A stretch of DNA of 64,000 nt from a virus (lineage: Duplodnaviria > Caudoviricetes), in the IMG/VR virus record IMGVR_UViG_3300034171_000062, positions 32,001-96,000 of that record; one strand, written 5' to 3'. The first letter of the stretch is position 1. Every line of letters starts with the position of its first letter. Below, piece after piece: positions 26,639-48,795 of the stretch. The notes under the pieces were generated by a model. It was not told the DNA's origin and ran no database searches. It was given only the letters and a program-made list of their open reading frames with translations. A program made the position numbers and the translations under genes.

Positions 26639-27394
26639 CTATCGTTTAAAGAGTTTTTCGCCCATCCAGCCGACGGGGTCCCACCGGTGAAACCGAACCG
26701 CGCCGGGTTTGGCATGGTGACTGCCGTGCCAGCAATCGCCTAGAATGAAGGGAAACATAAAGACGCTGTCGTGGGGGGAGTCTGTCTCGACCTTACCCCA
26801 ATTATGGCCCCAAGTGTTGGCTAAGGACTGAAGTTGCCACGTCAGCGCCACCGGCGCCCACACTAAAGCCAAGGCCCATTCGAGAGGGAAGAGTAGGATG
26901 GACCCAAAGAACACAGGGGCATAGATGTGCCAGTAATGAGTGTGGAACCAAACGTGCCACTTTGACCGCAGTAAGCGCCCTGCGTGACGCCCACTGACGG
27001 TGCGAAACGTGTACCCGAGCAGTTGAACCGACAGCCAATGACTGCGCGCTGGGCTGTGTGGGTCCTTAGCCTCTCCCTGATGCTTGTGGTGGGCGTTGTG
27101 TGTCGCCACCCATCCGAGACTACTGCCCTGAAGCGACAGTCCACCTACGAGGGTTAAGGCGACTTCTACGGCCTTTGGTACCGTCACTGCGTTGTGGGTC
27201 AGAACCCGGTGGTACATAAAACTGATGCCCAGTTGACTGATGCCATACCCCAACAATAACGATATTCCTAACAACCCCCACTCGCCCCGCACTATCAAGA
27301 CCACCACCGCTGCGTGACACAATAGAACCATGCCATAGTGACACAGTCGGTTTGCAGGTAGGACCTCTATATTCAACCGTTGTAAAGTACTCAT
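26639..27394 (-). CDS. membrane fatty-acid desaturase (Delta9/DesC-like), copy 5
   Basis: His boxes HRVLTH, HNAHH, HGSHH; DPHSP; TM helices. Confidence 0.9.
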   Translation of the reverse strand: MSTLQRLNIEVLPANRLCHYGMVLLCHAAVVVLIVRGEWGLLGISLLLGYGISQLGISFMYHRVLTHNAVTVPKAVEVALTLVGGLSLQGSSLGWVATHNAHHKHQGEAKDPHSPARSHWLSVQLLGYTFRTVSGRHAGRLLRSKWHVWFHTHYWHIYAPVFFGSILLFPLEWALALVWAPVALTWQLQSLANTWGHNWGKVETDSPHDSVFMFPFILGDCWHGSHHAKPGAVRFHRWDPVGWMGEKLFKR

Positions 27395-27423
27395 GTTCGT
27401 TACCTCCTTCGCCCTTTTTAACG

Positions 27424-28320
27424 TTACAACGAGGCAACATCGTACATTGTTTCAAAGGCTTTATCGAAATCGCCGAAACGATCGAGTTGGCGTTTAGCGT
27501 TGTGTTTGACTTGCGCGTAAAACTCAGGGTCCAAGTGGTCGGCCACTGGAGTGGCTACGTTGCAGTACAATCGATACGGCATCTGAATGAACAGTCGATC
27601 TATGCCCCCCACGTCTTCCCACGGTGGCTTCGGTGAGGAGAAGTTTACGATCCGTGCCTGACGCATCCGTACTTGATGTCGCATGCATTGAGTCGAACTG
27701 AACACCTTGTGGAGCGCACTTTCCACCTTGACGTTGATGTGGCCAGGCAATAAACCTTTCTTAACCCCAGACAAGACACGATTCAGGTAGTGTTTAGGCA
27801 TCCCCCGATCCAAACAATCGACCCGTAGGTAGTTCGAATAGAAGTCGGCGCAATCGACGCTGTCTCGTAAGACAGGCAAGTTAAAGACCACGACGCCTAA
27901 GGAGAAGTAGCTGCGCGAGCGCATGTACCGATCTAGATGGTCCGGGTCCAGCCGCGGATACCCGTCATTAAACCGAGACAGTTCAAACGGCCGGTCGGGA
28001 CGAATGACCAGGGCCTGGTCGCCTAATTTGGCTTGCGCTATGTCAACGATCGGCCCGTTACACACGGTACTCGGGTCCAACAACAACAGCGACTGAACTT
28101 CAGGGTCGTTCAAAGCGTAGTTTACAACCGCCACCGCATCGGCGTCGTCTACTTCGACGTATCGAAGTTTGTCGTACACGGACTCTAACTTCTTCCGCGT
28201 GAGGGCGTCGTCGTAAAACACCGTCAACACCCAAGTAGGATTTTCTTTGCGGTAGCTGTATAAGGAGACAATGGCTTGATTAAGTCTGTCCCAAGGTACG
28301 GCGAATCCAACGATGTCCAT
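27424..28320 (-). CDS. GT8-like glycosyltransferase (DxD apparently degenerate)
   Basis: AIVSLYS..., LLLLDPS, YFSLGVVVFNL, KPPW match the GT8 layout; GGAGGT RBS. Confidence 0.65.
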   Translation of the reverse strand: MDIVGFAVPWDRLNQAIVSLYSYRKENPTWVLTVFYDDALTRKKLESVYDKLRYVEVDDADAVAVVNYALNDPEVQSLLLLDPSTVCNGPIVDIAQAKLGDQALVIRPDRPFELSRFNDGYPRLDPDHLDRYMRSRSYFSLGVVVFNLPVLRDSVDCADFYSNYLRVDCLDRGMPKHYLNRVLSGVKKGLLPGHINVKVESALHKVFSSTQCMRHQVRMRQARIVNFSSPKPPWEDVGGIDRLFIQMPYRLYCNVATPVADHLDPEFYAQVKHNAKRQLDRFGDFDKAFETMYDVASL

Positions 28321-28331
28321 AGTACCTCCCA

Positions 28332-28625
28332 TTAAAACGTGCGTTCTCGCAGTTGGTTGCTGACCGATTCTTCGTAGTTTGGGTAATGGTCCGCTGTGAC
28401 TACTGGATTGGGACCTTGTTCGATCAGTGCCCGCAACTGAGGCGTCATGTGTTCGTTCTCAGGGGGTACGGGTTGGAGTTTTAGGATTTCTTCCCGCATC
28501 AACGTAAGGTCCATCCGAGGGTTGTCTACAATGGCTTGTGGTAATGGGTGGCTGGTTTTAACCCAGCCCCAATCCACCAAAACCGTACGACTGGTCAAAT
28601 TCAGTTCTTTCACTTTGAAGTTCAT
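28332..28625 (-). CDS. hypothetical protein
   Basis: Coupled ORF within the operon. Confidence 0.6.
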   Translation of the reverse strand: MNFKVKELNLTSRTVLVDWGWVKTSHPLPQAIVDNPRMDLTLMREEILKLQPVPPENEHMTPQLRALIEQGPNPVVTADHYPNYEESVSNQLRERTF

Positions 28626-29505
28626 ACGAGGCTCCGAGGTCTAACCCCGTGGGGGTACGATAATGGGTGCGATGGAGGTCATCCATCACGGTTAAGATTT
28701 GATCCAACTTACTGGGGGCGTCGTGCAACCAGAACACCCCGCTGTAGGGACTGGCCAGCAGTCGACATAAGGCCTGGTGGGGATCGGGCTGAATCCGAAC
28801 AATCTCATAAAGTTGCCGGTAAATGTGGCGGTTCACTACTTCATGGTCGGCATCAATAAGACCCACCGGTTTCTTCATCAACTTACCCAACAGTCCCAAC
28901 TCGCTGGCCGAGGTGCAATACACGGTCTCAGCGCGTTGGAGTAACTCGTGACCACTGACGTGATTGCTGTACACCGCCCCCGGAAAACTCTCTTCAATCC
29001 GAATCAACCAATCGTTCAAGGTGATGGGGTGCGGTTTGATCTTAGCGCCGGCTTTGTACAGGCGATAGACAAACGCCCAATCGACGCTGTGTTCCAGTAG
29101 ATTAGACCCTGGCAAAAACACCACCGCCGGAATGGGGTGAGACTCCAAAGACCGAATGAGACGGTACTTATCCATCCCCTTGACCAATGCGGTTCTAGGG
29201 TCGATGGGTGTCACAGTTTGGTCGGTAACGCCTTGGACGACCATCTCATATCTGAGTAAGTCGTCACACGGGGTAATCAACAAGGCGTGTGAAAAAATCT
29301 CAGTGTAGTGGATGCTTTTATACTCAGGGTCTTTGTTGTAATAGATGTCGTATAAGACCTGCTTGTCCGTTTTCCGTTCCAACTGATGGCTGAGTTTAGT
29401 CAACTTATCCATCTGGCCGGCCCGACCCACCGTGCCCGACTTATGCAGTTGGGTATACCCATCCCCCAATCGATCAGAGGCGCTGTCGAACTCTAGGTCG
29501 TTCAT
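28558..29505 (-). CDS. KpsS/KpsC(Capsule_synth)-like glycosyltransferase-fold protein
   Basis: KIKPHP...ELLQRAETVYCTSASELGLLGKLMKKPV resembles the KxHP and S..G.EA...KPV motifs. Confidence 0.5.
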   Translation of the reverse strand: MNDLEFDSASDRLGDGYTQLHKSGTVGRAGQMDKLTKLSHQLERKTDKQVLYDIYYNKDPEYKSIHYTEIFSHALLITPCDDLLRYEMVVQGVTDQTVTPIDPRTALVKGMDKYRLIRSLESHPIPAVVFLPGSNLLEHSVDWAFVYRLYKAGAKIKPHPITLNDWLIRIEESFPGAVYSNHVSGHELLQRAETVYCTSASELGLLGKLMKKPVGLIDADHEVVNRHIYRQLYEIVRIQPDPHQALCRLLASPYSGVFWLHDAPSKLDQILTVMDDLHRTHYRTPTGLDLGASYELQSERTEFDQSYGFGGLGLG

Positions 29506-29507
29506 AC

Positions 29508-29759
29508 TCAATCTCCCTCGTGGACTTCCTCCGTCGAGGGGAGGAGACCAAGTCTTGCTAACTCGTCTTGAACCCGCGCTTCAATACGAGCGTTCATCGT
29601 CGCATCGAGTTGTTGCAGGGTGGATTCCAAACGGTTATCAAAATTCGTAAGGTGTTCCAGGAACACGTCGGTCAAGGTTTCCAACTTACGCATCGCTTGG
29701 TTTAACTGTTCCTCTAGAGGATTCTTGACTTCGTCATCGGCGGTCATATTGACTCCCAT
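29508..29759 (-). CDS. small coiled-coil protein
   Basis: Heptad-like; translationally coupled; alternative start at 29747. Confidence 0.65.
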   Translation of the reverse strand: MGVNMTADDEVKNPLEEQLNQAMRKLETLTDVFLEHLTNFDNRLESTLQQLDATMNARIEARVQDELARLGLLPSTEEVHEGD

Positions 29760-30259
29760 TAGTAATATATCGTGGTGGTGATGGCGCTGTTGATCGTGGT
29801 GGTGATGGTCACATTTTGGCTGGACGTTGTTGTTGTATTTTTAGTTGCCGCAGTAGAGTGTCCGGTGGTATGGCTGGTGTTCCGAGTGGAATTCACGGTG
29901 GTGGTGTAACTCGTGACGTACCCCCCTTTGTATTCTCCCGTGTTGTGAGAGGTAGTCCGACTGACGCCTTGAACCAACGTGCTGTACGTAGTCGTGTAGT
30001 TTGTTGTGATCGACCACCCGGTCACGGTTGTTTTAGAAACCGCGGTTGAAACCGTGGTGGTTACCGACACAGGCGCGGTGGTGTTGATGATTCTTTGATA
30101 CGCAATCCCAGGCAACATACTGAAACGTATCGGGGGAGCACTCGGCAACGCCGGATGCCCACGACCCAATAACGACGACATGCGGTTGCTTGATAAGGTT
30201 CCCTGGAATTCGGTCACCACATCCGCGAAGGAAATTGGGGACGCTGCCGGTAGGGCCAT
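29759..30259 (-). CDS. Thr-rich putative tail-tip adhesin
   Basis: N-terminal MALP...ISF...EF...IRFS module like fibre-tip attachment domains; 39 Thr in the last ~107 aa. Confidence 0.6.
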   Translation of the reverse strand: MALPAASPISFADVVTEFQGTLSSNRMSSLLGRGHPALPSAPPIRFSMLPGIAYQRIINTTAPVSVTTTVSTAVSKTTVTGWSITTNYTTTYSTLVQGVSRTTSHNTGEYKGGYVTSYTTTVNSTRNTSHTTGHSTAATKNTTTTSSQNVTITTTINSAITTTIYY

Positions 30260-30302: not shown

Positions 30303-32663
30303 TTACTGGCGAGTGCGAAGTACCTGGACCAGTTCGTCAATCTCCCCCCGCATGGAGGCCACCTCACTCCGAACCTCGTCCAGCTCAACGCATTTCTCCT
30401 TAAAGCTTTGCGTGAGCAGTGCGATAAAGTCGACGTAGGCCAAACTCAATTTACCGTCTTCTCGGGTTCTCAGTAGTTCTGGGAACACCCCCGCCGCTTC
30501 GTGAGCTAAGAACCCAAAGCGTATCTTCTTATCGGGGTCGTCTTTAAGGACGTACCGACGGGGTAAGAGTTGCCGGTAACGATCGCTGATTTCAGACACG
30601 TGTTCGATGGCGTCTTTCAGAGACTCGTCTGAGGCGTAGATGAAATCGTTTGCGGTGATCTCTCCAACGACGGTGCTATTACCCGCCTTGGTTACATAAC
30701 TCGCGTCGTGATCGCCAGCCGCCACGTGGTCGTACATGGCTTTGGCTTGCAGAGTCTTTACCATGGATTGATCGTTTCTTGCGGCGGTCGACTCTGGATT
30801 GGTTTCAGCTCCAGAGTCGATTCCATCCAACTTCGTCCGATCGGCGGCTGACATAGCGCCAGCGGCATCGACCGTGGCGGCTGGCACCTCGACGCTGTCC
30901 CCAGTGCTGGAAATGAGAGTAACGCTGCTTACCGCGGTTGAGTAAGACAGGTCGGTACCAACGTTGACCTGAGCGCCAGCGGATACGCCGTTCAACTTAG
31001 ACTTATCGTCGGCTGTCATGACGCCAGCCAAACTGACGGTGGCAGACCCCAAGGTCACATCACCGCCGGTGGAGGAAGACACCGTGACGTCGGTACTCGC
31101 GCGGGTCACCCCTAGATTGGTGGCGACGTTCGCTTGGGCCCCTTCGCCAATTCCATCCAACTTCGTCCGGTCGCCAATCCCCATAAACCCAGCGTTGGTG
31201 CTGGTACTAATCGGGACGGCGACGTTCCCACCCGTGCTGGATTGCAGGGCTCGACTGTTGCCAGTGCCGGTTAATGACAGGTCCGTGCCCACGTTAACTT
31301 CCGCGCCAGCAGCGACGCTGTTCAACTTTATTTTGTCGGTCGAACTGAGTAGACCGGCCGTGTTGGTTGTGGCACCTGGCAGTACCGCATTGCTGCCGTT
31401 GGTGTTGGTGATGGTGATGCTGGTGGTGGACAGAGTACGGTCCAAATTGGTGGCGACGTTCACCTGAGCGCCTGCTTCCATCCCTACTAACTTATCAAAC
31501 TGCTGCGTGGTCATCAGTCCGGCGGTCGACGTGCTGGCCGGTGGAAGACCGACGTTGGCCCCGGTCGACGATTGAAGGGTGCGGTTGTTGCCTGACCCCC
31601 CTAACGACAGATTGGTGGCGACGTTCGCTTGAGCCCCGGCCTGCACGCCACTTAACTTACTCTTCTCAGCGGTGGTGTAATCCTCACTGGACAGCCCTTT
31701 CCCGGATACTTTATCGACCTTAGTGTCCAAAGTCGCATCCAGCTGTGTCTGGGTGTAATATCGAGCGTCGTGATCGCCACTGAGGGCGTGGTCTCTCAGA
31801 GCTTTAGCCTGAAGTACCACGGTGGTGCTGCTGTTGTTCCGCGCTGCCGTGGTCTCTGGGTTGACTTCCGCGTCCGTTTCAATGCCGTTCAACTTTCCAA
31901 GCAGACTCGGACTCATCAAACCGGCGTCTGAGGCGGTCACCACCGCCAACGTCACTCCGGTGCCGTTGCTATTGAGGATCACGTATTCAGTGGCGGTGCG
32001 GTCGAACGTCAAGTTTGAGGGGACGTTGACGTCGGCCCCGGCCGCAATACCGTTCAACTTAGACAACAAGGCGTCGGTCAGGTCGTTCTCCGACAGACCT
32101 TTGCCCGTCACCTTATCGACCTTCCCTGCTAACGCCGACCCAAGGCCTGCAATGGAGGCGATGGTCAGATTCTCTAGAGTGTCTCGGTTCACCTTAATGA
32201 AATCAACGATCTCTTGAATCTCGTCGAGGGTGCCGTCATCGCTGTTGATCAGGGCGTTGATCGCATCCACCGCGTCCTTAAGAACCTTACCCTGCGCCGC
32301 ACTCAAGGGCGCATCGGCGGTGTTGCTGGTCAGGTCGTTAACGATGGTCGCTATGTCGATCTTTAACCCAAGTGCCTGATCCAGCTGTGTTTGGGTGTAA
32401 TATCGAGCGTCGTGATCGCCACTGAGGGTGTGATCGTAGATCCCTTTGGCGGTGAGCAGTTGACCAACGCTGTTTACGTTACGTGCTGAGGTGACGGCGT
32501 TGGGTATCTCACTTAGACCCACTTGCACTTTGGTGACACCGTGTGGATTATCAACTCGACCAAAGTGAGTGTCCGTGCGCCCAAAGAGTCCGTCTAACCG
32601 TTCTTTGAGCACGGTGAACATCGATTCGATGGACGACCGTAGTTGCTTATCTGATTCAGACAT
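30303..32663 (-). CDS. repeat-rich tail fibre with C-terminal intramolecular chaperone (Peptidase_S74)
   Basis: NPHGVTK and AGLM...DKxKLDG repeats; SDESLK...FGFLAHE...FPEL...LAY chaperone signature. Confidence 0.88.
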   Translation of the reverse strand: MSESDKQLRSSIESMFTVLKERLDGLFGRTDTHFGRVDNPHGVTKVQVGLSEIPNAVTSARNVNSVGQLLTAKGIYDHTLSGDHDARYYTQTQLDQALGLKIDIATIVNDLTSNTADAPLSAAQGKVLKDAVDAINALINSDDGTLDEIQEIVDFIKVNRDTLENLTIASIAGLGSALAGKVDKVTGKGLSENDLTDALLSKLNGIAAGADVNVPSNLTFDRTATEYVILNSNGTGVTLAVVTASDAGLMSPSLLGKLNGIETDAEVNPETTAARNNSSTTVVLQAKALRDHALSGDHDARYYTQTQLDATLDTKVDKVSGKGLSSEDYTTAEKSKLSGVQAGAQANVATNLSLGGSGNNRTLQSSTGANVGLPPASTSTAGLMTTQQFDKLVGMEAGAQVNVATNLDRTLSTTSITITNTNGSNAVLPGATTNTAGLLSSTDKIKLNSVAAGAEVNVGTDLSLTGTGNSRALQSSTGGNVAVPISTSTNAGFMGIGDRTKLDGIGEGAQANVATNLGVTRASTDVTVSSSTGGDVTLGSATVSLAGVMTADDKSKLNGVSAGAQVNVGTDLSYSTAVSSVTLISSTGDSVEVPAATVDAAGAMSAADRTKLDGIDSGAETNPESTAARNDQSMVKTLQAKAMYDHVAAGDHDASYVTKAGNSTVVGEITANDFIYASDESLKDAIEHVSEISDRYRQLLPRRYVLKDDPDKKIRFGFLAHEAAGVFPELLRTREDGKLSLAYVDFIALLTQSFKEKCVELDEVRSEVASMRGEIDELVQVLRTRQ
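31737..32428. repeat. 50-bp near-perfect repeat in the fibre gene (31737-31786 and 32379-32428)
   Basis: One mismatch; encodes LSGDHDARYYTQTQLD. Confidence 0.85.
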
Positions 32664-32683
32664 GATGGTAATTCCCCGTACCC

Positions 32684-32754: not shown

Positions 32755-33012
32755 TTAATCCTGAGCGGCGGTGGCGTTGATCTTAGTCCCAGACCACTTC
32801 TCGTAAATCTCTTTTACAGCGGTGACGTCTTTGGTGTTGTTCAGAGCGTTGTCGATCAGTTTGATGATCTTATCGTCGATTTCATTGTCGGTCTTCGCCG
32901 CCAACTTCACCAAGTGATCTACAATGATGCGCTTTACCGCTGCGGTCCCCAAAAGACTCAGAAGCATGGTGCCAATGGTGCTGAGGATGGATGTCTTTTT
33001 CTGTTCGCTCAT
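32755..33012 (-). CDS. small membrane-associated phage protein
   Basis: Hydrophobic N-terminal helix; AAKTDNEIDDKI motif. Confidence 0.7.
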   Translation of the reverse strand: MSEQKKTSILSTIGTMLLSLLGTAAVKRIIVDHLVKLAAKTDNEIDDKIIKLIDNALNNTKDVTAVKEIYEKWSGTKINATAAQD

Positions 33013-33080: not shown

Positions 33081-33110
33081 CGGAATAAAAGGAGACCCGA
33101 AGGTCTCCTA
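33081..33110 (-). terminator. intrinsic terminator ending the desaturase run
   Basis: AGGAGACC-TTCG-GGTCTCCT-TTTATTCCG (- strand). Confidence 0.8.
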
Positions 33111-33920
33111 GGATTTTGTTCCTTGGCGGAGGAGTTCTTGTAGGTCTTTTGGGCGGTCCGGTTGCGGGCGTCTTCGAATCAGTTGAATGAACCACGCAGC
33201 AAAGTCCACCTCGTACCAACGCTCACTGATGTTCCAGCGACTGGGGTCGGCGTGGTGGTTGTTGTGCCAACCGTCACCAACCGTGACTATGTTCACCAAC
33301 CAGCTGTTGCGGCTGTCGTCGTCCGTCTCGTGGTTGCGGTAGCCCCACGTGTGACCGAAGGTGTTAAAGAACCCTTTGACGTGAAACAGCAACGCGGCAG
33401 GGATCGCATATAAGAACAGCGCTGCCTTCCAGTCAACCGCCCACAGTCCAAACGCATACGCTGCCAATATAGGTACGTAGTACTTATGGGTTAATTGATA
33501 CCCACGCGCGCGCACTTCCCGTTTGGCCACTCTTGGGTCAAGAAAGACCTTGCGTTCCATCCATTCGCCGAACCAAGCTTCTCGCCAACCCTGAACAGTA
33601 GGGCTGTGTGAGTCCCGGTTGGTGTCTGCGTACTTGTGGTGTGTGCGGTGTACCAATAGGTTCATCAGTGGTGAAGCGATGGTGCACAGCATACCACACG
33701 TCACTAGAAGGTACCGCCAAGCGGGAGATGTCTCAAACGAGCGGTGGGCTTCCAGTCGATGATACCCCACAGTTACCCCAAAGAACCCGTACACAAAGTA
33801 CGCTAAAAGCATCCACCCCAACCAGTCCCACGTGCCGTGGTAGATAGCCCAGGCGAGTCCTACGGTTGCGGTGAACTGGAGCGCGATCTGCCAGTACTTC
33901 AGCTGCACGTGTGGCTTCAT
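33108..33920 (-). CDS. Delta9-type fatty-acid desaturase, copy 4
   Basis: HRLEAH, HRTHH, GDGWHNNHH. Confidence 0.93.
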   Translation of the reverse strand: MKPHVQLKYWQIALQFTATVGLAWAIYHGTWDWLGWMLLAYFVYGFFGVTVGYHRLEAHRSFETSPAWRYLLVTCGMLCTIASPLMNLLVHRTHHKYADTNRDSHSPTVQGWREAWFGEWMERKVFLDPRVAKREVRARGYQLTHKYYVPILAAYAFGLWAVDWKAALFLYAIPAALLFHVKGFFNTFGHTWGYRNHETDDDSRNSWLVNIVTVGDGWHNNHHADPSRWNISERWYEVDFAAWFIQLIRRRPQPDRPKDLQELLRQGTKS

Positions 33921-34678
33921 GATGTCCTCGGTTTACGGATCAGACGAATGATGACGGCGGGCAAATCCACTTCCCACCATTTATCCCAGTTGTTCCAATC
34001 GTTTGGACGTTGATGGTGGTTGTTGTGATACCCTTCTCCGACAAACAGCCACGCCACCAGTAGCGAATTGGTGGAGGCATCGTCGACGTCGTGGTTGCGG
34101 TATCCGCCGGTGTGGCACCAGGCCGAGGCAAACCCAAAGATCACCCACATCAAGGCACTGGGAAGTGCGTACGCAAACAAGAACAGACGCCAATCGATCA
34201 CCAGGAGAATCAACGCGGTGCCGTAGACGATCTTGAAATAGTTGCGGTGAAAGAATTGAACGTCCTTCTCTCGAGCCAAGTCCCGGATGGATCTGGGTGA
34301 GCACTTCTTCAGATTCCACCCAATAGACAACCAGGCTCGGTAGAACCCCAACAACCGAGGGCTGTGTGGGTCGCCGTCTGTGTCTGGATACATGTGATGC
34401 GTACGGTGCACCATGGTCCAGGTAATAGGCGATCCTAATGACATCATCGAACCACAGTACAACAAGAACCAGCGGATGGGTGTGTAGGTCTCATAACTGC
34501 GATGGGCCACGTATCGGTGAAAGCCGACCGAGTTCCCAAAGACGCTGAGGGTCACGTACACCCCCAGGGTCCACCACAACCACTGCCACTGACCGAACGC
34601 AGTCAGATACGCAATGGCAACCCCTCCGAAGAGGGCGTTAAAAAGATTGAGGCAGTCTAATCTGCGCGCTTCAGTCAT
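33917..34678 (-). CDS. Delta9-type fatty-acid desaturase, copy 3
   Basis: HRYVAH, HRTHH, GEGYHNNHH. Confidence 0.93.
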   Translation of the reverse strand: MTEARRLDCLNLFNALFGGVAIAYLTAFGQWQWLWWTLGVYVTLSVFGNSVGFHRYVAHRSYETYTPIRWFLLYCGSMMSLGSPITWTMVHRTHHMYPDTDGDPHSPRLLGFYRAWLSIGWNLKKCSPRSIRDLAREKDVQFFHRNYFKIVYGTALILLVIDWRLFLFAYALPSALMWVIFGFASAWCHTGGYRNHDVDDASTNSLLVAWLFVGEGYHNNHHQRPNDWNNWDKWWEVDLPAVIIRLIRKPRTS

Positions 34679-41802: not shown

Positions 41803-42743
41803 TGTGTCTCAGCCCATTGCAATAAGTGAATGAACCCGTTGCACGACTGGTCGGTACTCTGCACGTCTCTCAGGTGTTCTGACAGACACCGTCCAAAATA
41901 CGTACAGCCGCTGCAACCTGATGTCAGTACCCTCGTCTTCTCAGTGTCACACCACGCAAAATACGCGTCGATGCTGTCCATCTCCAAGAAGAACTCGTTG
42001 TCCGCCTCATCGAACTCCAACACGCCAAACTGGCCGCTGGGGGTGATGTACACATGGTCGTCGGAAAACGCGTTGCGCTGGCCAGACAGACTCTCTTGAA
42101 TCTGCTGAGCGTTGACGAATTCAAACTTCATCTCAGACTGACGTTCGTACAATTGCTTAATGAACGCCTCGTACTCCGGGTATCCTACCGGCAACTGATT
42201 GGCCTGATTCGGACTGTAGGGCTTGATCTCCACCGAACTGAGATTGGCCAGAAGATTCAATGTCCCAACAATCTCATCGGGGGTCTTTGCTAGAACCTCT
42301 GGGGTGGCCAAGATCAGAATCGAGAACTCCCGCTCCATCTTTAACATCTGTTGAAAGACGTGTTCGTGTCTCTCGCGTGCATCGAAGTCGTAGCTGACTG
42401 ACAAGTACCAGTCCGGGTCGTGCATCACAGCGTTGTTCACAGACAGATTGGTGATGATGTTCAGATCGTCGATCCCGCGGGCGTGGAGACCTTCTTTTAA
42501 TTCGTTGATGTACTCCGAAGGCAACAGCAACGGTTCGCCTCCGTAGAGGTCCACCATACCCACGGGTCTATGTGCCAGCACCTCATCCACACGTTCAAAC
42601 AACCGTGTCAGCGACAGACGTTTCTTGTCTGCCAGTTGCACTGGAGTCAAGTAACAGAAGTTGCATCGGAAGTTGCAGTAGTACGAAGGATTTACCGACA
42701 AATTGATCGGTTGATCAGTCGACGTTAACGAGTGTAAGTTCAT
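41799..42743 (-). CDS. radical SAM protein
   Basis: CNFRCNFC, YGGEP, TNL, C-terminal CSGCTYFGRC. Confidence 0.9.
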   Translation of the reverse strand: MNLHSLTSTDQPINLSVNPSYYCNFRCNFCYLTPVQLADKKRLSLTRLFERVDEVLAHRPVGMVDLYGGEPLLLPSEYINELKEGLHARGIDDLNIITNLSVNNAVMHDPDWYLSVSYDFDARERHEHVFQQMLKMEREFSILILATPEVLAKTPDEIVGTLNLLANLSSVEIKPYSPNQANQLPVGYPEYEAFIKQLYERQSEMKFEFVNAQQIQESLSGQRNAFSDDHVYITPSGQFGVLEFDEADNEFFLEMDSIDAYFAWCDTEKTRVLTSGCSGCTYFGRCLSEHLRDVQSTDQSCNGFIHLLQWAETQ

Positions 42744-43812
42744 CGATACTCTCATCCACATAGGGGGTTGGGATCAAGATCCCGGTTAATCCGTTGGCTT
42801 CGATGAGGTCGGGGGCCAGTGCTTTCATCTTGCGACAGTGTTCTTCGACGCGGCCGGTCTTCTTGGCGTCTCGGATGCTCTTCTTACAGCCGTTGCAAAT
42901 GGAGAACATGGGACAGAAGTAACAGTCCTGCTTTAAACTGTCCAACTCAAACACCTGAAGTGGGAGTTGCTTCTTACCCGTCATTTCTTCTTCGAAGTTG
43001 ATCGGGTATTCCCCATCGTCACCAAAGGAACCGCAGGAGTAATAGTCCCCACTCGGCTGCATGGCCCGGATGCCAGAGTCGCACGTGCGCTTCAAAGGAC
43101 ACGTGGTAGCACCACCCGCTAGGGCAACGGTCATTTGTTGTGTGCCGTGTTCCCACTCAGTCAGTCCTCGGCGATGGAGGTCCAGATAGACTTCGTACAT
43201 GTCCGCTACCAAGAAGTGCTGACCTTCATTGCCCATGGTGCCTTTCTTGGTTTGAACAACCGGCCCGGAGGCGTTGGCGTAGTTCAGCTTACACGACACA
43301 CCCATGGCCTTGGCCAACTCTACGGTTTTCACCGCTTCATGGCGATTACTCTCATCGACGACGGCGATGAACGTGGGGCGGTATCCTACGTGCTCTAACA
43401 TGGTGTCTGAGACGGCCCAGAACTCGTCTTCGGTGAACGGGGTATAATCCCCCTTCAATCGTTTCTCACCGTACTGGAAGCTCGTAGCGACGCCCACACG
43501 AGGGTGATTGAACAGAGGCGCCCACTTCCCCGGTTTCTTGTAGAACGGCCAGAGATTGGAGGTCAGTGAGATGCTGGTGTTTTCCATCTTCAACTCGTCC
43601 AACATCTCAATCAAGGCCCAGTAATACGCCGGTGGCATCATTAACGGGTCGCCGCCGTTGACGATGATGGTGTTGGTTTCCGGGAAACGTTCCAAGAACC
43701 GACGTATATCGACCAACTCCAGAATGTCGTTGCTGTCCTCGGCGATGTTTGTGCTGGAACAGAACGTGCATTTAAAGTTGCATTTCTCCGTGGGTTTGAT
43801 TATGAGATCAAT
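42715..43812 (-). CDS. radical SAM/SPASM protein with apparent ATT start
   Basis: Frame extends past the track start to IDLIIKPTEKCNFKCTFC; GGDP; C-terminal CYFCPMFSICNGC; AGGAGG 8 nt before ATT. Confidence 0.88.
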   Translation of the reverse strand: MDLIIKPTEKCNFKCTFCSSTNIAEDSNDILELVDIRRFLERFPETNTIIVNGGDPLMMPPAYYWALIEMLDELKMENTSISLTSNLWPFYKKPGKWAPLFNHPRVGVATSFQYGEKRLKGDYTPFTEDEFWAVSDTMLEHVGYRPTFIAVVDESNRHEAVKTVELAKAMGVSCKLNYANASGPVVQTKKGTMGNEGQHFLVADMYEVYLDLHRRGLTEWEHGTQQMTVALAGGATTCPLKRTCDSGIRAMQPSGDYYSCGSFGDDGEYPINFEEEMTGKKQLPLQVFELDSLKQDCYFCPMFSICNGCKKSIRDAKKTGRVEEHCRKMKALAPDLIEANGLTGILIPTPYVDESIDELTLVNVD

Positions 43813-43841
43813 CTTACTACCCTCCTAGCCCGGAGGCTCGT

Positions 43842-44900
43842 TTAAACGTTCAGTGTGGGTATGCGTTGAGCGGCACCATCGCTGACGGCGTCGATGTATC
43901 GATGGGTGGCTTTGTACACACACTCATCCATTTCGTCTCGGTGGCGATACGCGTGTTGCATGAAGCACCCCAACTCACAGCGTTGAAAGTACTCGCACGT
44001 CAAGCACCCATATTTCTCCATGAAGTGTTCTTCAATGCCCCGATTGCTCTGCGGATCGATGGGCACTTCGTAGATCTCTTCGGCAATCTTTGGGTCGATG
44101 AGGTTACCGCACCCACAGGTAGTGCCGTCTTCCAAAATCAACTTACTGGATCGACACGACAAACTACTGGACTTGCGTTCCATCCACCCAGCGATCGGTT
44201 CGCAGTTTGGGTAGTTATCGATCAAAAACGTAAACAACTTGAACAGATCCAAATCGCCTGGGGCGGCTGGAGTAACTTCATCGGGCATCAGGTAATCGAA
44301 ATAGATCTTAAACCCAGCGCCATAGACCCATTTAAAGAACGCGTCCTGATCTCTTAGGAAGTGATCGATGTTCTGCTTGGTTGCGACTAGACAGACGCTT
44401 CTAATGATTCTGGGTCCGAAGTATTCTAAGTTGGCTTTAAACGCTTCAAACTGCTTGCGGTTAAAGCGACCTTTGGGATCGTAGGACGTCGTGAACGTCG
44501 TGGGAATGCCCGCCGTTGCGCACTCTTCAATGAACAGACTCAATTGAGTTCGATCGTCCGTCACCAGGTTGGTCACCCAGTTAAGCGTGACTCGGATGTT
44601 ATTCAAGCGTGCGTGGGCTACGATCGCTTGTGCCAGTTTTACGTACGCCGCGCGCATCGTGGGAGTAAAGACCTCCGGCGCGAAGACCTCCCCACCCATG
44701 ATGTTAAACACCACAACCGACTTGGTCTCCTTGTCCAGAAGCTTCACCACCGCGGGCAATTTCCCCAGTATATCGTCCACGCCTACTAAGGAGTCGTGGT
44801 CCTGCCAGCAGAAACTGCACGACAGGTTACAGTACTCGAACAGGTGTATCGTGTATTCCTGTTCGGGGTCTCGCTTGCTGTTCAATAAGAGATCGGTCAT
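43842..44900 (-). CDS. radical SAM/SPASM protein
   Basis: CNLSCSFC, MGGE, C-terminal CLTCEYFQRCELGC. Confidence 0.9.
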   Translation of the reverse strand: MTDLLLNSKRDPEQEYTIHLFEYCNLSCSFCWQDHDSLVGVDDILGKLPAVVKLLDKETKSVVVFNIMGGEVFAPEVFTPTMRAAYVKLAQAIVAHARLNNIRVTLNWVTNLVTDDRTQLSLFIEECATAGIPTTFTTSYDPKGRFNRKQFEAFKANLEYFGPRIIRSVCLVATKQNIDHFLRDQDAFFKWVYGAGFKIYFDYLMPDEVTPAAPGDLDLFKLFTFLIDNYPNCEPIAGWMERKSSSLSCRSSKLILEDGTTCGCGNLIDPKIAEEIYEVPIDPQSNRGIEEHFMEKYGCLTCEYFQRCELGCFMQHAYRHRDEMDECVYKATHRYIDAVSDGAAQRIPTLNV

Positions 44901-45910
44901 AGTTCGAACCCTTTACACGCCTCCGACTTCAATCCCACCGCCCAATGGATGACGTGGACTTTTAACTTGTCCATGTCGGCCCAATCTAGGTAGTCGGTGT
45001 GTTCGTTGCTGGCACGTATCATGGAAATGAAAAGATCGGTTGCTTCGCCATCCTCAATCGGGTCGACGCTGCTGATGATCCTTAGTTTGGCCCGTTCGGC
45101 TTCGATTTGCAGTTTCTCGATCTGAGGTTCCTGATCCAGATACAAGGCAAAGTCCCGACACAGCGCGTCTTGAGTGGGTTGTTTCATCCGCGTGATCCGA
45201 AGCGTCAGATTGGGGTCGGTCAAGAAATTGAACCCAGGTACCTTACGCAGTAAATTCACCTCGCCGACGTGCTGGCTGGCGTCGTATCCGTACTTCTTCT
45301 GCATGTGGGCTGAGAAGAACAAAGACACCAGATTACGCTGAATTTCATGCACGTGATTGATCGTCGACCGTAACGCAAACATACGTACGTCCTCGGCGAT
45401 GCTTACGCGCTTGTTGCCTGAAAGATAGTCCAACAACTTATACTCCAGAGAGAGCTTCTCTGGAATGTCGCGCACCACCGTCCGAAGGTCGGCGTCGCCT
45501 TCGAGGTTGGCGTAATCTGAAACCATCTCTTTAACGACTTCCCCTTTAGGTAACGCCACGCCCTGAGTATTCAATGCCACCAGTTCCAGTCCCAATAGGG
45601 TTTGTACTTGACTCAGAGTGGCGTTGGGGAAAATGGCTTTCAGCCACTTACTGATCAACTTACCGTAAGACTCAAGACTGGTGTAGATAACGATCTTCTT
45701 GTCCCCTACGCCTTTATACTGCGTGAGTAACTTAGTGAAACCGGTGGCCACAAACTCATCTTCGTCAGCGGTCAGTCCCATTAGGATAGGACCAGCAAGT
45801 TCTCGCTCGTCGTAGTTCTCAGCCATAACCTTGGAGGCCAGGTAGAACGCATGTTTTTCCGATTTGATGCTATCCACGGCTAGGTAGATGCGATTAAACA
45901 AATGATACAT
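44897..45910 (-). CDS. hypothetical cluster protein
   Basis: 337 aa; coupled at both ends. Confidence 0.75.
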   Translation of the reverse strand: MYHLFNRIYLAVDSIKSEKHAFYLASKVMAENYDERELAGPILMGLTADEDEFVATGFTKLLTQYKGVGDKKIVIYTSLESYGKLISKWLKAIFPNATLSQVQTLLGLELVALNTQGVALPKGEVVKEMVSDYANLEGDADLRTVVRDIPEKLSLEYKLLDYLSGNKRVSIAEDVRMFALRSTINHVHEIQRNLVSLFFSAHMQKKYGYDASQHVGEVNLLRKVPGFNFLTDPNLTLRITRMKQPTQDALCRDFALYLDQEPQIEKLQIEAERAKLRIISSVDPIEDGEATDLFISMIRASNEHTDYLDWADMDKLKVHVIHWAVGLKSEACKGFEL

Positions 45911-46635
45911 TACGTTTCCTCGATGGCTATTTCGTCGTTCTTTAAAGCGACGAGCGCGTCTTCGAACTCTTCGTTCGTAAGCATCTCATCGTCCACCATA
46001 GACACCAGAAGAACGTGTAAGTCGTTCTCTGGAATGGCCCAAAACGAAAACAGGTTCTTACTTTTGAACATGTAGTCGTTAAAGTACTTGGTGTAATTCC
46101 GCACCAGGCCGTCGTTTACCACTTCCATGGCGATAGGAAACAACGGATTGTCAAACAGATTGACAAAGTTGATGCCTTTGGTGTCTGCCGTGTCGTCGAC
46201 TGGGTAGTTGTTGACCAGCGCTTGCAGGGCGTCGTCTTGAATGGTTGTCATCATGTACAAACTCATGGAGTCGATCAACGACAGCCACTTGCCCAATATA
46301 CCGAGTCGGTCTTTAATCCATTTGTCGGTCACCCAATTGCACACACCCAATCCCTTGATGTGGAGCATTACTTCCAACACCATGGTTTCCAACTTCTTAC
46401 ATTTCAGTAAGGTGGGTAGGTTCAAATACGCGTCCAACACCTCCAAGGCGTCCTCACCCAAAAAGGTGACTTCAACCGGTAGGTCTAGGTTACTTAAGTA
46501 GATCAGGGCTTGCAGTGGGTTTACTCGATCCTTCGAGGCCGACAGGTCGATCTCCAAAGAGACCTCTGGATCGCCGATGATCTCCCGAAGGGTGGCGACG
46601 GGAATGGGGACGGTGGTTTGGACTACAGTACTCAT
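45910..46635 (-). CDS. hypothetical cluster protein
   Basis: TAATG-coupled; AGAGGA RBS. Confidence 0.75.
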   Translation of the reverse strand: MSTVVQTTVPIPVATLREIIGDPEVSLEIDLSASKDRVNPLQALIYLSNLDLPVEVTFLGEDALEVLDAYLNLPTLLKCKKLETMVLEVMLHIKGLGVCNWVTDKWIKDRLGILGKWLSLIDSMSLYMMTTIQDDALQALVNNYPVDDTADTKGINFVNLFDNPLFPIAMEVVNDGLVRNYTKYFNDYMFKSKNLFSFWAIPENDLHVLLVSMVDDEMLTNEEFEDALVALKNDEIAIEET

Positions 46636-47192
46636 TAACGACGTCCTCTTGAGTTGTGACAGCTGTCGTGACATTGGGCGTGACAGATGTCGCGCGCTAA
46701 CGTGTGGGTGGTGTTCACTCGGGCGTAGTTATAATACGCATTGCGTAACCGTTCAATGAACCCGTCCGCGCCCGCCCGATCGATGGCGTAGCCGTCGTCC
46801 ACCGTGCCCGCAGCTTGGGCTGGGATGTTGATTTCCTGGGCGGCGGTTAGATTGGCGATGGTCGTGGTGTCGTATATCACTCTATACCCATTGCCTGACG
46901 ACCACCCAGTCCGGTTCTGACGGATATAAATGCGTGTCCGGCGGATGCGGGAGTAGTTCTTCATATACGCATGCAGGGTAGCGCGCATGGTGTCGGCATC
47001 CAATACCCCACCCGGACCTTCAATCGCCGCGTAGGGCGGCAATGAGTAGTATCCGCTGGTAGTGCCCCCAAACCATCCGTACAGGGAATTTGCTGGGTAG
47101 TTGTTGGTGCCCCAGGATATCCCACTGCGGGACAGGGCACTTACCCTTTCACTGAATTTTAAGTAGACGTCTGCTGTCTTGATCTCGGCCAT
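46635..47192 (-). CDS. candidate modified substrate / virion protein ending in CHAQCHDSCHNSRGRR
   Basis: 185 aa; Gly/aromatic-rich body; all three Cys in the terminal (CHxx)3 motif; flanked by rSAM genes. Confidence 0.75.
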   Translation of the reverse strand: MAEIKTADVYLKFSERVSALSRSGISWGTNNYPANSLYGWFGGTTSGYYSLPPYAAIEGPGGVLDADTMRATLHAYMKNYSRIRRTRIYIRQNRTGWSSGNGYRVIYDTTTIANLTAAQEINIPAQAAGTVDDGYAIDRAGADGFIERLRNAYYNYARVNTTHTLARDICHAQCHDSCHNSRGRR

Positions 47193-47238
47193 GTCAAGGT
47201 TCCTATAAGTTTAAATGTCCATACGATCTAACGATCCT

Positions 47239-48297
47239 TTATCCCACGTTAAGTACCGGAATGATATCCGTCTCTCCGTATTTAAAGTGAGATAGGAGCA
47301 ATCTCAATCCAGGACACGAGTTGCCCTGCCAAATCAGTCGATGGCAGTCCCCGCCACAGACATCGAATAAGTGACAACTTAAGCAGTTGGGGTTAACGTC
47401 CAGTTCGTCGACAATGCGTTCCGTACGACCGTCGCTTAAAAGGAACTCTTCCAAATTGTCGTCCAAGGTCCCGTTCGATTCCACCTTGGCGCCGTTGGCA
47501 CACCCGCCGATGTTTCCTGCGCCGTCTACCGTAAACAAGTTCTGTTCGCACGTGCGGCAGTTGGTGTCTACGTTATACTGGTTGGTTTCGAACTTAGTCT
47601 CTATGGTTTCCAACGTGCCGATGGTGAAGTTGGGTTTCAGACGTTTGTACGCGAAGTACAAATCGTAGTAAAACTTATCCACCGCCCGATTGTCTGGGAA
47701 CATATGGGGGTTGTCCACCGCGTTGCCGTCGGAAGTTAGACGTTCGATGGCCACGTCCGTCACCCCAAACGTCCCCCACAACTTGATCAACTCATCGACG
47801 TTGTACGTAAGAGTCTGATCGGTGACGGTCACAAACATCTTAATGGTGATGTTCATGTCTCGCAGAGTCTTCAAGTTCCCAAGCCACTGTTGATACATCC
47901 GCTCGGTCTTAAATCGATACACTGGGTCCCAACTCGTACCGACGTGACTCCCCATCACTTTGATGAAAAAGTTCGTGTGTTCATCGGTCAACTTATATAT
48001 GAGATTGGTGGTGGCGCCGATTGAGATGTCGTCCCAGCGTTCTTCGCCCACCAGACGTTTGACCGTTAAGGCAAAGTCCCAATGTTCGTGAATAGGACGT
48101 AAGAAAGGCTCGCCCCCATGTAACTCCAAATGTAAATGTTCGTCGTTGAACTGCTGAGCCAACTCACTGACCCACCCAGCAACCTTCTGAGTATCCCAAG
48201 CAGTCTTCGCCCCCTTCGACCCTGAGGTAAAGCAGTGATCGCAATCCAGATTACAAGTGTCCGTTGGTTTGATGTACACTACCTTCATAACTGCCAC
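47239..48297 (-). CDS. radical SAM/SPASM protein
   Basis: YIKPTDTCNLDCDHC, LHGGEP, CRTC...GC...CLSCHLFDVCGGDC...C. Confidence 0.92.
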   Translation of the reverse strand: MAVMKVVYIKPTDTCNLDCDHCFTSGSKGAKTAWDTQKVAGWVSELAQQFNDEHLHLELHGGEPFLRPIHEHWDFALTVKRLVGEERWDDISIGATTNLIYKLTDEHTNFFIKVMGSHVGTSWDPVYRFKTERMYQQWLGNLKTLRDMNITIKMFVTVTDQTLTYNVDELIKLWGTFGVTDVAIERLTSDGNAVDNPHMFPDNRAVDKFYYDLYFAYKRLKPNFTIGTLETIETKFETNQYNVDTNCRTCEQNLFTVDGAGNIGGCANGAKVESNGTLDDNLEEFLLSDGRTERIVDELDVNPNCLSCHLFDVCGGDCHRLIWQGNSCPGLRLLLSHFKYGETDIIPVLNVG

Positions 48298-48770
48298 CGG
48301 TCTTCTAAGAATTGTTCGTTACCAAAACTGATCATGATCGATTCGAATTCGTTTGTAGCACGATGCATAACGCCCGCCGGAATCCACACCGTTGGGTTGT
48401 ATATCGGATCGAGGGTGATGACCTCCCCACCAATTTCAATCGTCTTTTTACCGTAAACGCATTTCAGTAGAATGTCGTACGGGTCTTCATGCAACCTAAA
48501 GCTAGGCGCGCCAGCCACCGCCCAAAACAGATGTGCGTTGCACGGACCGTCGTGACCGGTTTCCTTCTTTATCCGAACCGTCTCCAACTGCACCTCTCGG
48601 AACACCCGTTCCAACTCTTCCACCTTGATGGTCTTTAAGGAACCGTCGAACGCCTCAGCCACTGAGCTTATCGGGCGAATGTGGTGGTCGGTGTCGATGC
48701 GAGAGACCAAACTTTCCTCGTACAGATCCGGCAGCGTCAGCAGCATTTCAATGCGGTCTTTAAAATCCAT
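48285..48770 (-). CDS. JmjC/cupin-type Fe(II)/2OG hydroxylase
   Basis: NAHLF...SFRLHEDPYD (HxD)...GKK...WIPAGVMH; GAGGAG RBS. Confidence 0.8.
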   Translation of the reverse strand: MDFKDRIEMLLTLPDLYEESLVSRIDTDHHIRPISSVAEAFDGSLKTIKVEELERVFREVQLETVRIKKETGHDGPCNAHLFWAVAGAPSFRLHEDPYDILLKCVYGKKTIEIGGEVITLDPIYNPTVWIPAGVMHRATNEFESIMISFGNEQFLEDRWQL

Positions 48771-48791
48771 GGCGGGTCTCCTCAGTAATCT

Positions 48792-48795
48792 CATA
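48792..48795 (-). promoter_or_regulatory. putative TATG late promoter heading the modification cluster
   Basis: TATG lies between the upstream terminator and the RBS, as in phiKZ late promoters; a short motif, so weak evidence. Confidence 0.4.

Follow-up and report, generated by a model that had tools for sequence, protein, structure and literature searches.

Radical S-adenosylmethionine (rSAM) enzymes that act on whole proteins have precedents in two described systems. In the bacterial HXS defence, HxsA, which has five basic His-x-Ser repeats, undergoes maturation by the radical-SAM enzymes HxsB and HxsC together with HxsD (PMC13128918). The system depends on a +8 Da change in an SHRSS motif, the basic repeats bind DNA, and mature HxsA stops phage DNA entry in the periplasm (PMC13128918, 2026). 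In Methanococcus voltae, the Cys-rich protein CrpA receives ranthionine cross-links from the SPASM enzyme CrpC (PMC13692751). Runs of cupin, rSAM and 2-oxoglutarate (2OG) oxygenase genes also occur in phages, where the papers on SURPRISE13 and FLC6 merely list them as accessory genes of unknown function (PMC11898562, PMC8066314). Here, we describe such a run, together with a neighboring set of ketosynthase and desaturase genes, in a 64,000-nucleotide stretch of virus DNA (hereafter, the window) that corresponds to bases 32001–96000 of the 170,557-bp IMG/VR virus contig IMGVR_UViG_3300034171_000062. At this length, and with an estimated completeness of 62% (CheckV), the contig derives from a phage of jumbo size.

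A previous sequence-only reading of the window had taken positions 26639–48795 to be one biosynthetic pathway for the decoration of virions. Its observations on gene content were largely right, and its interpretation is partly supported. We consider, with moderate confidence, that the stretch consists of three separable cassettes embedded in the late baseplate/fibre operon of a jumbo phage: a protein maturation cassette (A), a lipid cassette (B) and an S74 fibre cassette (C). Cassette A seems to mature a virion protein with an invariant Cys-His tail, as supported by the published proteomics of phage Atu_ph07. Cassette B most likely acts on lipids and not on virions. According to the literature searched, neither cassette has been studied before. 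The window was compared with phage genomes and with metagenomic contigs that were reached through the ketosynthase, the desaturases or the 185-aa tail protein (L009–L015 and L022).

Genes and Enzymes of Cassette A

Cassette A extends from 48.8 to 38.1 kb and contains the following genes:

48285..48794, minus strand: leading gene of the cassette; cupin-fold protein that may be an Fe/2OG oxygenase (31–34% identity to the genes that open the cassette in SURPRISE13 and DT01)
47239..48288, minus strand: rSAM1, radical-SAM protein with a full SPASM domain (Radical_SAM 30.0 bits; SPASM TIGR04085 28.4 bits, cut-off 27)
46635..47192, minus strand: 185-aa CH-tail protein, candidate substrate and virion component, with the C-terminus CHAQCHDSCHNSRGRR
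45910..46635, minus strand: conserved 241-aa protein (homologues in the same place in SURPRISE13, DT01 and L009; same-sized gene in L013)
44897..45910, minus strand: conserved 337-aa protein (homologues in the same place in L009, with 40% identity, and in DT01)
43842..44900, minus strand: rSAM2 (CNLSCSFC), of SPASM-like appearance, with a Cys-rich C-terminus (Radical_SAM E 4e-4; 1e-5 in six frames)
42715..43812, minus strand: rSAM3 (CNFKCTFC), SPASM-like, with an ATT start (39.3 bits across the whole Radical_SAM model once the frame is extended)
41799..42761, minus strand: rSAM4 (CNFRCNFC; Radical_SAM 33.6 bits; 48–49% identity to the SURPRISE13 and DT01 homologues)
40747..41802, minus strand: rSAM5 (CDYGCSGC), paralogue of rSAM6 (PHROG 31457, E 1e-16; no Pfam match)
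39654..40742, minus strand: rSAM6 (CRHNCSGC; Radical_SAM E 1.7e-4 in six frames; PHROG 31457)
39205..39657, minus strand: conserved protein of about 150 aa (PHROG 20737, function unknown, E 9e-40; homologues in SURPRISE13, DT01 and L009)
38672..39238, minus strand: 2OG-Fe(II) oxygenase (PF13759 56.8 bits, cut-off 27; TIGR02466 43 bits, below the cut-off of 62.5)
38108..38662, minus strand: 2OG-Fe(II) oxygenase (PF13759 53.3 bits, cut-off 27)

The six radical-SAM proteins that had been noted for their Cx3Cx2C motifs were borne out: CxxxCxxC is present in all six, and five of them score on Radical_SAM in a six-frame search. The matches to PF04055 were above the cut-off for rSAM1, rSAM4 and, in six frames, rSAM3, and below it for rSAM2 and rSAM6, while rSAM5 had none. 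Motif, PF04055 matches and the TIGR04085 match of rSAM1 place the set in the radical SAM/SPASM superfamily. In the family alignment, rSAM1 has eight invariant C-terminal Cys residues. It aligns end to end with the PapB, DynA and anSME models (41–49 bits), and also with AmcB and HxsB, with scores far below every family cut-off. In rSAM3, which is 59% identical to proteins of RSL2 and SURPRISE13, the SPASM model TIGR04085 reached 21.5 bits, below the cut-off, and rSAM4, rSAM5 and rSAM6 retain just a CxxCx5C...C remnant of SPASM at their C-termini.

Two of the gene starts were revised. The CxxxCxxC motif of rSAM3 lies upstream of the first ATG, GTG or TTG, in a frame whose preceding stop is close by, near 43824; starting at an ATT codon located 8 nt past a perfect GGAGG (43809–43830, minus strand), the product is 365 aa, the length of the homologues. 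A protein started from ATG, GTG or TTG alone would be without the motif. For rSAM6, the true start at 40742 corresponds to Met105 of the long open reading frame (ORF), and the homologues are 362–368 aa long.

The pair of 2OG-Fe(II) oxygenases was likewise corroborated, both proteins scoring well above the 2OG-FeII_Oxy_5 (PF13759) cut-off. The first gene had been read as a JmjC hydroxylase. Its cupin character stands, through homologues in SURPRISE13 and L022 that are annotated or scored as Cupin_2, whereas the JmjC assignment does not: JmjC_2 (PF08007) gave 16.8 bits against a cut-off of 22. Neither the 241-aa nor the 337-aa protein matched a family in Pfam, NCBIfam or PADLOC. Viperin models in PADLOC were set aside, since they match the generic N-terminal rSAM motif only. 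A complex prediction for rSAM1 and the CH-tail protein, both supplied as alignments, scored 0.21 against a mark of 0.32 and has no bearing either way.

Cassette A in Other Phages

The gene order of cassette A (cupin, rSAM1, CH-tail protein, two proteins of unknown function, further rSAM proteins and 2OG oxygenases) recurs behind baseplate or fibre genes in widely different jumbo phages and contigs: Burkholderia phage SURPRISE13, Pseudomonas phage pPa_SNUABM_DT01 (DT01), Agrobacterium phage Atu_ph07 and L022, a 171-kb metagenomic contig. The carriers also include Ralstonia RSL2 and RSF1 and other Burkholderia and Ralstonia phages of the FLC series, and the cultured ones infect Ralstonia, Burkholderia, Pseudomonas, Agrobacterium and Sinorhizobium. 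In all of the carriers compared, the cassette is located behind baseplate or fibre genes. The enzyme set itself varies, while the core of cupin, rSAM and CH-tail protein is constant, as is evident from the version in L022. This distant cassette encodes a 533-aa B12-binding radical-SAM enzyme (L022:14563–16164) and three 2OG oxygenases. Within the cassette of SURPRISE13, two genes are annotated "dihydrofolate reductase" (L005:12756–13933; gp77–78) and have no counterpart in the window. The rSAM genes of phi-RP12 and RP31 were considered as homologues and not used, as they form a different set (a 537-aa rSAM protein, a MoaA-like protein and MgoB; PMC5468394). No function had been assigned to cassette A in the literature searched.

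The rSAM1 family comprises at least 390 related clusters, on contigs of up to 276 kb; none of the best 120 was on a contig of megabase size.

The CH-Tail Protein Family

The (CHxx)3-RGRR protein that had drawn attention in the window proved to belong to a large family. A full HMMER search with the 185-aa query against 1.84 billion representatives yielded 184 metagenomic clusters at 50% identity. The (CHxx)3 tail was present in 139 of the best 150, in nearly all of these followed by RxRR at the C-terminus, and the consensus is VCHSSCHSSCHGSRGRR. In an alignment of 99 members, which were selected for the motif, the only invariant columns were nine positions of the tail (Cys, His and Arg, three of each), against a mean column identity of 16%. 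The same type of tail closes strongly diverged proteins of SURPRISE13 (gp72), DT01 (PA10_00065), Atu_ph07 (296 aa) and L013. The six-frame translation of the 170-kb contig holds just one such tail.

AlphaFold2, run with the 99-member alignment, predicted a confident α/β body (residues 1–170, predicted local distance difference test score (pLDDT) 91) and a flexible tail (pLDDT 57). No solved structural relative of the body was found, the best Foldseek match in the PDB having an E of 0.69 and the best match in a wide VIA-align search a Z of 4.3. Shape and feature searches of the ESM Atlas gave nothing above noise, which does not by itself make the fold a new one. The body does match predicted structures of phage proteins, including A0A2L0UZF9 of Atu_ph07 (296 aa, E 3.5e-6). 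Neither a Pfam domain, including any peptidoglycan-binding domain, nor a hydrophobic N-terminus was detected in the 185-aa protein. HMMER matches to giant Calx-beta and tape-measure proteins were weak repeat or partial matches and were judged spurious.

The composition of the tail raised the question of its relation to HxsA. The consensus tail CHSSCHSSCHGSRGRR has three His-x-Ser triplets and a basic end, and the tail of the window protein has two (HDS and HNS). Cassette A might thus be a phage counterpart of HXS, in which an rSAM-matured His-x-Ser tail acts at DNA entry, either by excluding superinfecting phages or, carried in the virion, by escorting the phage's own DNA or neutralizing the HxsA barrier of the host. 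The maturation of HxsA, the need for its modified motif and the DNA binding of its repeats fit this view, as does a match of rSAM1 to the HxsB model (E 5e-10), and HXS is nearly confined to the Pseudomonadota, to which the hosts of the known cassette A phages belong. However, the score of that match, the best for rSAM1 on the HxsB/HxsC equivalog models (TIGR03978), was 38.7 bits against a cut-off of 370, and the 185-, 241- and 337-aa proteins gave no match in NCBIfam, where the HxsA and HxsD models are found. Nor does the 185-aa protein have the peptidoglycan-binding domain or hydrophobic N-terminus, the invariant Cys residues have no equivalent in the published HxsA motif, and the window tail itself has just two of the triplets. 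We consider this explanation decidedly unlikely.

Virion Proteomics of Atu_ph07

The virions of Atu_ph07 were previously analyzed by electrospray ionization tandem mass spectrometry of gel slices, listed in Supplementary Table S5 of that study (PMC6102473). One of the proteins listed is Gp170, a hypothetical protein of 31.89 kDa that was identified by eight unique peptides with 35% coverage. Gp170 (FDI40_gp170) is the CH-tail homologue of this phage, as seen from its length of 296 aa, its computed mass of 31.89 kDa, its C-terminus CHSSCHASCHNSRSRR and the fold match; the computed masses of gp176 and gp177 also agree with the listed ones. Gp170 was seen in gel fragments 1–9, with its peak abundance in fragment 1, the top slice, while in the same table the maximum is in fragment 2 for proteins of 117–137 kDa and in fragments 7–8 for those of about 30 kDa (PMC6102473). 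It is the only protein below 40 kDa with at least three peptides that peaks in fragment 1. Absent from the table are gp165, gp168 and gp171 (radical-SAM proteins), gp172 (cupin), and gp166, gp167 and gp169 (PMC6102473). A particle-associated protein that runs far above its own mass, together with enzymes that are not packaged, is the pattern expected of a system for the maturation of a structural protein. For the radical-SAM block, the proposed virion decoration is therefore supported by these data and by the synteny with baseplate and fibre genes; for the lipid genes and the supposed glycosyltransferases (see below) it is not.

The gene content, the conserved tail, the synteny with baseplate genes and the finding of gp170 in virions that lack the enzymes are observations; we infer that the enzymes act on the tail, which bonds they form and what the tail does. 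In the cytoplasm, the cupin, the six rSAM proteins and the two 2OG oxygenases would act on the 185-aa protein at its flexible, invariant tail, VCHxxCHxxCHxxRGRR, where they would probably form Cys-centered thioether cross-links, or else perform His/Ser chemistry of the HxsA kind, and also add hydroxyl groups. Once matured, the protein would be incorporated into the virion, close to the baseplate or fibres, in the form of an SDS (sodium dodecyl sulfate)-stable species of high mass. A more specific version, in which the CH-tail protein is a virion protein cross-linked by the rSAM enzymes and its basic His-x-Ser tail acts in the periplasm at genome delivery, mirroring or answering the HXS barrier, is doubtful at present. 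If true, it would be the first radical-SAM-matured component of any virus particle.

Several points weigh against maturation of a virion protein. The Atu_ph07 preparation was purified only with polyethylene glycol, and the proteins listed include a RecA-like protein, ribonucleotide reductase and a topoisomerase, so that both the presence of gp170 and its migration at the top of the gel could reflect aggregation. Oligomers that resist SDS, such as those of fibres, can likewise run at a high apparent mass. The BLAST match between the window protein and gp170 covers the last ≈45 residues only, and the broader link between the two is the fold match, with a TM score of 0.56. Six rSAM enzymes are also many for a 16-residue tail, and other substrates, such as the fibres, are possible. 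The late timing of expression, finally, is deduced from gene position alone.

The same proteomic data bear on the notion that cassette A makes a diffusible peptide that is synthesized ribosomally and then modified post-translationally (RiPP). The 185-aa protein would then be a precursor with a long leader, and its 16-residue tail, after cross-linking, would be cleaved from it and set free when the cell lyses. In having a folded body and an invariant, flexible core at the C-terminus, the protein does resemble the long-leader precursors, and the SPASM enzymes of the cassette resemble RiPP maturases. Since Pfam and NCBIfam scans revealed no protease or exporter in cassette A, and the Atu_ph07 homologue is found in virions with 35% coverage and at high apparent mass, we regard a released peptide as extremely improbable, and maturation of a virion protein is preferred.

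Cassette B Encodes a Ketosynthase and Five Desaturases

Cassette B occupies 33.1–38.1 kb, with a detached part at 26.6–27.4 kb:

37573..38097, minus strand: bicupin-fold 174-aa protein (AlphaFold2 pLDDT 89.7)
36239..37456, minus strand: FabB-like beta-ketoacyl synthase (ketoacyl-synt 92.2 bits, C-terminal domain 58.9 bits)
35488..36228, minus strand: desaturase d1, SCD/DesA type (FA_desaturase 63.8 bits; orthogroup support 99)
34688..35482, minus strand: desaturase d2 (FA_desaturase 60.1 bits; PDB 4ymk, SCD1, E 1.4e-13; orthogroup support 99)
33917..34678, minus strand: desaturase d3 (FA_desaturase 58.9 bits; orthogroup support 99)
33108..33920, minus strand: desaturase d4 (FA_desaturase 58.7 bits; orthogroup support 97)
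32755..33012, minus strand: adjoining the cassette, 85-aa protein with one hydrophobic segment, behind the desaturases here and in L009 (36% identity to the L009 gene)
26639..27394, minus strand: desaturase d5, divergent orthogroup (DesA family in NCBIfam, E 8e-8; clade support 100)

The ketosynthase had been recognized as FabB/F-type from its sequence, and this was upheld. Both Pfam domains are present, the Cys, His, His and Lys residues are aligned, and with this triad plus Lys the protein qualifies as a beta-ketoacyl-acyl carrier protein (ACP) synthase of the KAS I/II type. Its best match in the PDB is E. coli FabB (143 bits), followed by FabF (114–126 bits), but scores on the FabB and FabF orthologue models are low (NF005935, 160 against 630; TIGR03150, 181 against 494). 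The true start is at 37456, the relatives being ≈398 aa long. These form a separate phage clade of 15 metagenomic proteins with 43–56% identity, and the next relatives are ordinary cellular FabF proteins, at 32%.

The four tandem desaturases likewise hold up, with scores about twice the FA_desaturase (PF00487) cut-off of 29.7, and so does the fifth at 26639–27394, which has no Pfam match. The His boxes of d5 are HRVLTH, HNAHH and HGSHH. Three such boxes are found in all five proteins, which together with the Pfam matches of d1–d4 assigns them to the PF00487/SCD-DesA desaturases, and all five contain hydrophobic segments. A tree of 42 sequences resolved five orthogroups with support of 97–100, each with members from four to six sources (the window plus contigs), and with d5 on a long branch. 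The fifth desaturase of L010, with 58% identity to d5, is there contiguous with d1–d4. The nearest cellular desaturases, at 30–37% identity, are generic delta-9-type enzymes from Planctomycetes, cyanobacteria, Acidobacteria and Acinetobacter.

The start of the bicupin, listed as a 193-aa ORF, was corrected to 38097. Foldseek related its predicted structure to YhaK/pirin, AerE and BacB (TM ≈ 0.55, E 5e-5). No His, Asp or Glu is invariant among the bicupins and there are no conserved metal ligands. The protein is present in L010, L011, L013 and L014, which have four or five desaturases each, and not in L009, which keeps d1 as its only desaturase. In L014, it is duplicated (L014:4836–5369 and 8068–8601, 61% identity), with one copy among the radical-SAM genes of cassette A.

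Cassette B was found in six metagenomic phage contigs, and carriers of the ketosynthase and desaturases include L009, L010, L011, L013 and L014. Single-sequence scans of IMG/VR gave no match for the ketosynthase and two distant loci for d1. Among 50,697 GenBank phage records, there were bacterial-type fab genes in doubtful records and single desaturases, with no ketosynthase/desaturase module; cassette B is thus absent from the sequenced phage isolates. The tblastn matches of the ketosynthase in "phage" records were ordinary bacterial fabB or fabF genes (25–31% identity) in mostly unannotated or contaminated records and were not counted.

FabB and DesA-type desaturases each provide a route to unsaturated fatty acids in the Pseudomonadota. 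Neither an ACP (PF00550) nor an AMP-ligase (PF00501) was found in the 170-kb contig, which is 62% complete, implying the ACP of the host as the likely carrier. The ketosynthase would use host ACP and malonyl-ACP, accompanied by the five membrane desaturases of the SCD/DesA type and the bicupin, and the cassette would raise or diversify the unsaturation of acyl chains in the membrane of the infected cell late in infection. While the family matches establish what type of enzymes these are, we infer their substrate, their product and the benefit to the phage.

Two observations sit less well with an effect on bulk membrane lipids. Five distinct, conserved desaturases and a bicupin exceed what membrane fluidity should require and suggest something more specific. 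Furthermore, arrays of desaturases beside S74 fibres also exist in the unrelated contig L015, which leaves room for a link to the fibres. In this T4-like contig (gp38 adhesin, T4_Y16D), four desaturases of other clades lie directly behind an S74 fibre (L015:2187–12897), in a stretch that also encodes two related proteins of 176 and 236 aa and a 357-aa protein of unknown function, and no ketosynthase by Pfam. The repeated proximity of desaturases to fibres is real; it may be just a consequence of accessory genes gathering in a variable region.

A more specific product could be a specialized lipid metabolite, such as a conjugated polyene, a polyyne or a polyunsaturated acid, made by one chain extension and up to five successive desaturations and tuned by the bicupin as an isomerase-like protein. 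The conservation of five distinct orthogroups across phages would be explained, as would the core of ketosynthase and d1 to which other contigs add desaturases, and in its fold the bicupin is similar to BacB and AerE, which are double-bond isomerases. Bacterial polyyne clusters also use arrays of such desaturases. Against this, the 170-kb contig has no identifiable fatty-acyl-AMP ligase or ACP, the nearest cellular desaturases are generic delta-9 types and do not come from polyyne producers, and the bicupin has no conserved catalytic residues. We therefore consider such a metabolite unlikely, and modification of membrane lipids the better account of cassette B.

Cassette C and the Separability of the Cassettes

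Between d4 and d5 lies cassette C (27.4–32.7 kb), which would be an S74 fibre inserted there with its accessory genes:

30303..32663, minus strand: tail fibre with a C-terminal S74 intramolecular chaperone (Phage_fiber_rpt; Peptidase_S74 27.1 bits, cut-off 22)
29759..30259, minus strand: Thr/Ser-rich 166-aa protein behind the fibre (41 Thr, 22 Ser)
28558..29511, minus strand: 317-aa protein, previously read as KpsS/C-like (PHROG 26179, function unknown, E 3e-40)
27424..28332, minus strand: 302-aa protein, previously read as GT8-like (no family)

The S74 fibre was confirmed by its Pfam matches and the Thr-rich protein by its composition; the N-terminus of the latter is 39% identical to a 413-aa protein behind the S74 fibre of L010. 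No support was obtained for the two genes thought to be glycosyltransferase-like. The 317-aa protein, with relatives in Caulobacter and Vibrio phages, had no sequence match in Pfam, NCBIfam or the PDB, the 302-aa protein had none in these databases or in PHROGs, and a six-frame search of the contig with Glyco_transf_8 (PF01501) and Capsule_synth (PF05159) gave nothing at E up to 10. Since d5 is contiguous with the other desaturases in L010 and L011, the lipid module of the window is interrupted by an insertion, made up of the S74 fibre and the five genes behind it. The 85-aa ORF between d5 and the endolysin region (26373–26630) repeats the S74-fibre motif KVDKVTGKGLSENDFT and matches the fibre of L009.

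Comparison of the contigs separates the cassettes. The rSAM cassette is found without ketosynthase and desaturases in RSL2, SURPRISE13, DT01, Atu_ph07 and L022. Conversely, L010 (98 kb) and L011 (81 kb) share synteny with the window across the fibre genes and have no cassette A in the 21 kb read and at the syntenic site; their order is S74 fibre, ketosynthase, four desaturases, a 175-aa protein, fifth desaturase and endolysin. The close relative L013 has the exact order of the window, L014 has cassettes A and B, and L009 has cassette A with the ketosynthase and d1 only. In terms of the synteny check that had been suggested, the blocks occur independently, which goes against one pathway, yet cassette A stays behind baseplate or fibre genes, which favors virion decoration for the radical-SAM block.

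The separate occurrence of the cassettes contradicts the original idea of a single 22-kb pathway, by which cross-links, hydroxyls, an acyl chain and sugars would be placed on virion or fibre proteins as a receptor-binding or shielding moiety. The idea draws on the tight packing of the genes on one strand between fibre genes, on the adjacency of A and B in the window, L013, L014 and L009, and on the presence of desaturase arrays beside S74 fibres in three different genome backgrounds. However, the desaturases belong to a family that acts on lipids, are integral to the membrane and have nothing that links them to virion proteins. No acyltransferase, ACP, ligase or verified glycosyltransferase was found, and L010 and L011 lack the accessory genes that accompany the fibre in cassette C. 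A single pathway is very unlikely, and the division into three cassettes is retained.

Genomic Setting

Every gene from 57.1 kb down to 24.7 kb is on the minus strand. The intergenic gaps within 26639–48795 range from −47 to +116 nt, with the single exception of a gap of 225 nt that contains a small ORF missing from the ORF list, and many gene pairs have stop/start overlaps of 1 or 4 nt. The description of the block as one-stranded, tightly packed and mostly coupled was thus accurate. The surroundings are typical myovirus genes:

near the region: 903-aa virion protein (PHROG 3004)
48873–50516, 52230–53381 and 54257–57112: repeat-rich fibre proteins
60972–62675: baseplate protein with a lysozyme domain
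24931–25731: endolysin

A DUF1353 protein (50544–50984, 65 bits) is located among the fibre genes, and a 76-aa ORF (24697–24927) lies 3 nt beyond the endolysin. Upstream of the late block, on the plus strand, the window encodes a full-length NAD-dependent DNA ligase (12576–14591; PHROG 3869, E 1e-211). A megablast search of GenBank phages with 12 kb as the query gave no match.

Discussion

With its 184 clusters of tail proteins and at least 390 clusters of rSAM1, on contigs of up to 276 kb, cassette A is common in the public data searched. If its enzymes mature a virion protein, radical-SAM chemistry becomes part of virus assembly, a question that is directly testable in existing phage isolates. 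The strikingly similar logic of HXS on the side of the host means that the cassette could bear on the entry of phage DNA into cells. Cassette B is apparently the first case, in the collections searched, of a phage that carries several desaturases together with a ketosynthase, and would broaden the known ways in which phages rewire host lipids.

The closest relatives of cassette A are the rSAM/cupin/2OG runs of RSL2/RSF1, FLC6/SURPRISE13, DT01 and Atu_ph07, which are homologues with up to 59% identity and share both the gene order and the place behind baseplate or fibre genes. Unlike the window, these phages are without the ketosynthase/desaturase module.

Its closest known analogue is the bacterial HXS defence, to which, by the model scores given above, it does not belong. 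Both combine several rSAM enzymes and small partners with a whole-protein target that has a short, basic His-x-Ser element (PMC13128918). In cassette A, however, a (C-H-x-x)3 repeat whose Cys residues are invariant sits at the very C-terminus of a protein lacking a peptidoglycan-binding domain, and six rSAM proteins and three oxygenases are encoded by a phage beside baseplate genes, with the protein in a virion. The SPASM rSAM enzymes and a Cys-containing target are shared with CrpC/CrpA (PMC13692751), in which CrpA is a full-size substrate, and with the PapB-type ranthipeptide/SCIFF maturases; in these systems, the enzymes introduce thioether cross-links into Cys-rich targets. Here, the similarity is at the superfamily level only: the scores on ranthipeptide and sactipeptide maturase models are 49.1 against 340 (PapB) and 28 against 625 (StsB), and the 16-residue tail of the target contains just three Cys residues, with a His next to each on the C-terminal side.

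Cassette B resembles the polyyne clusters (cay, pgn, col) and JamABC in having several SCD-type desaturases, which in those systems act sequentially on one acyl chain. It differs from the bacterial polyyne clusters in that the fatty-acyl-AMP ligase (PF00501) and ACP (PF00550) were sought in the 170-kb contig (62% complete) and not found (a thioesterase was not searched for), with a FabB-like ketosynthase instead. Among phages, the nearest parallel is provided by the desaturase auxiliary genes of cyanophages (bioRxiv 10.1101/109157), which also encode membrane fatty-acid desaturases and are thought to alter host lipids. Those are single genes, whereas cassette B combines five desaturase orthogroups with a FabB-like ketosynthase and a bicupin, near the fibre and lysis genes.

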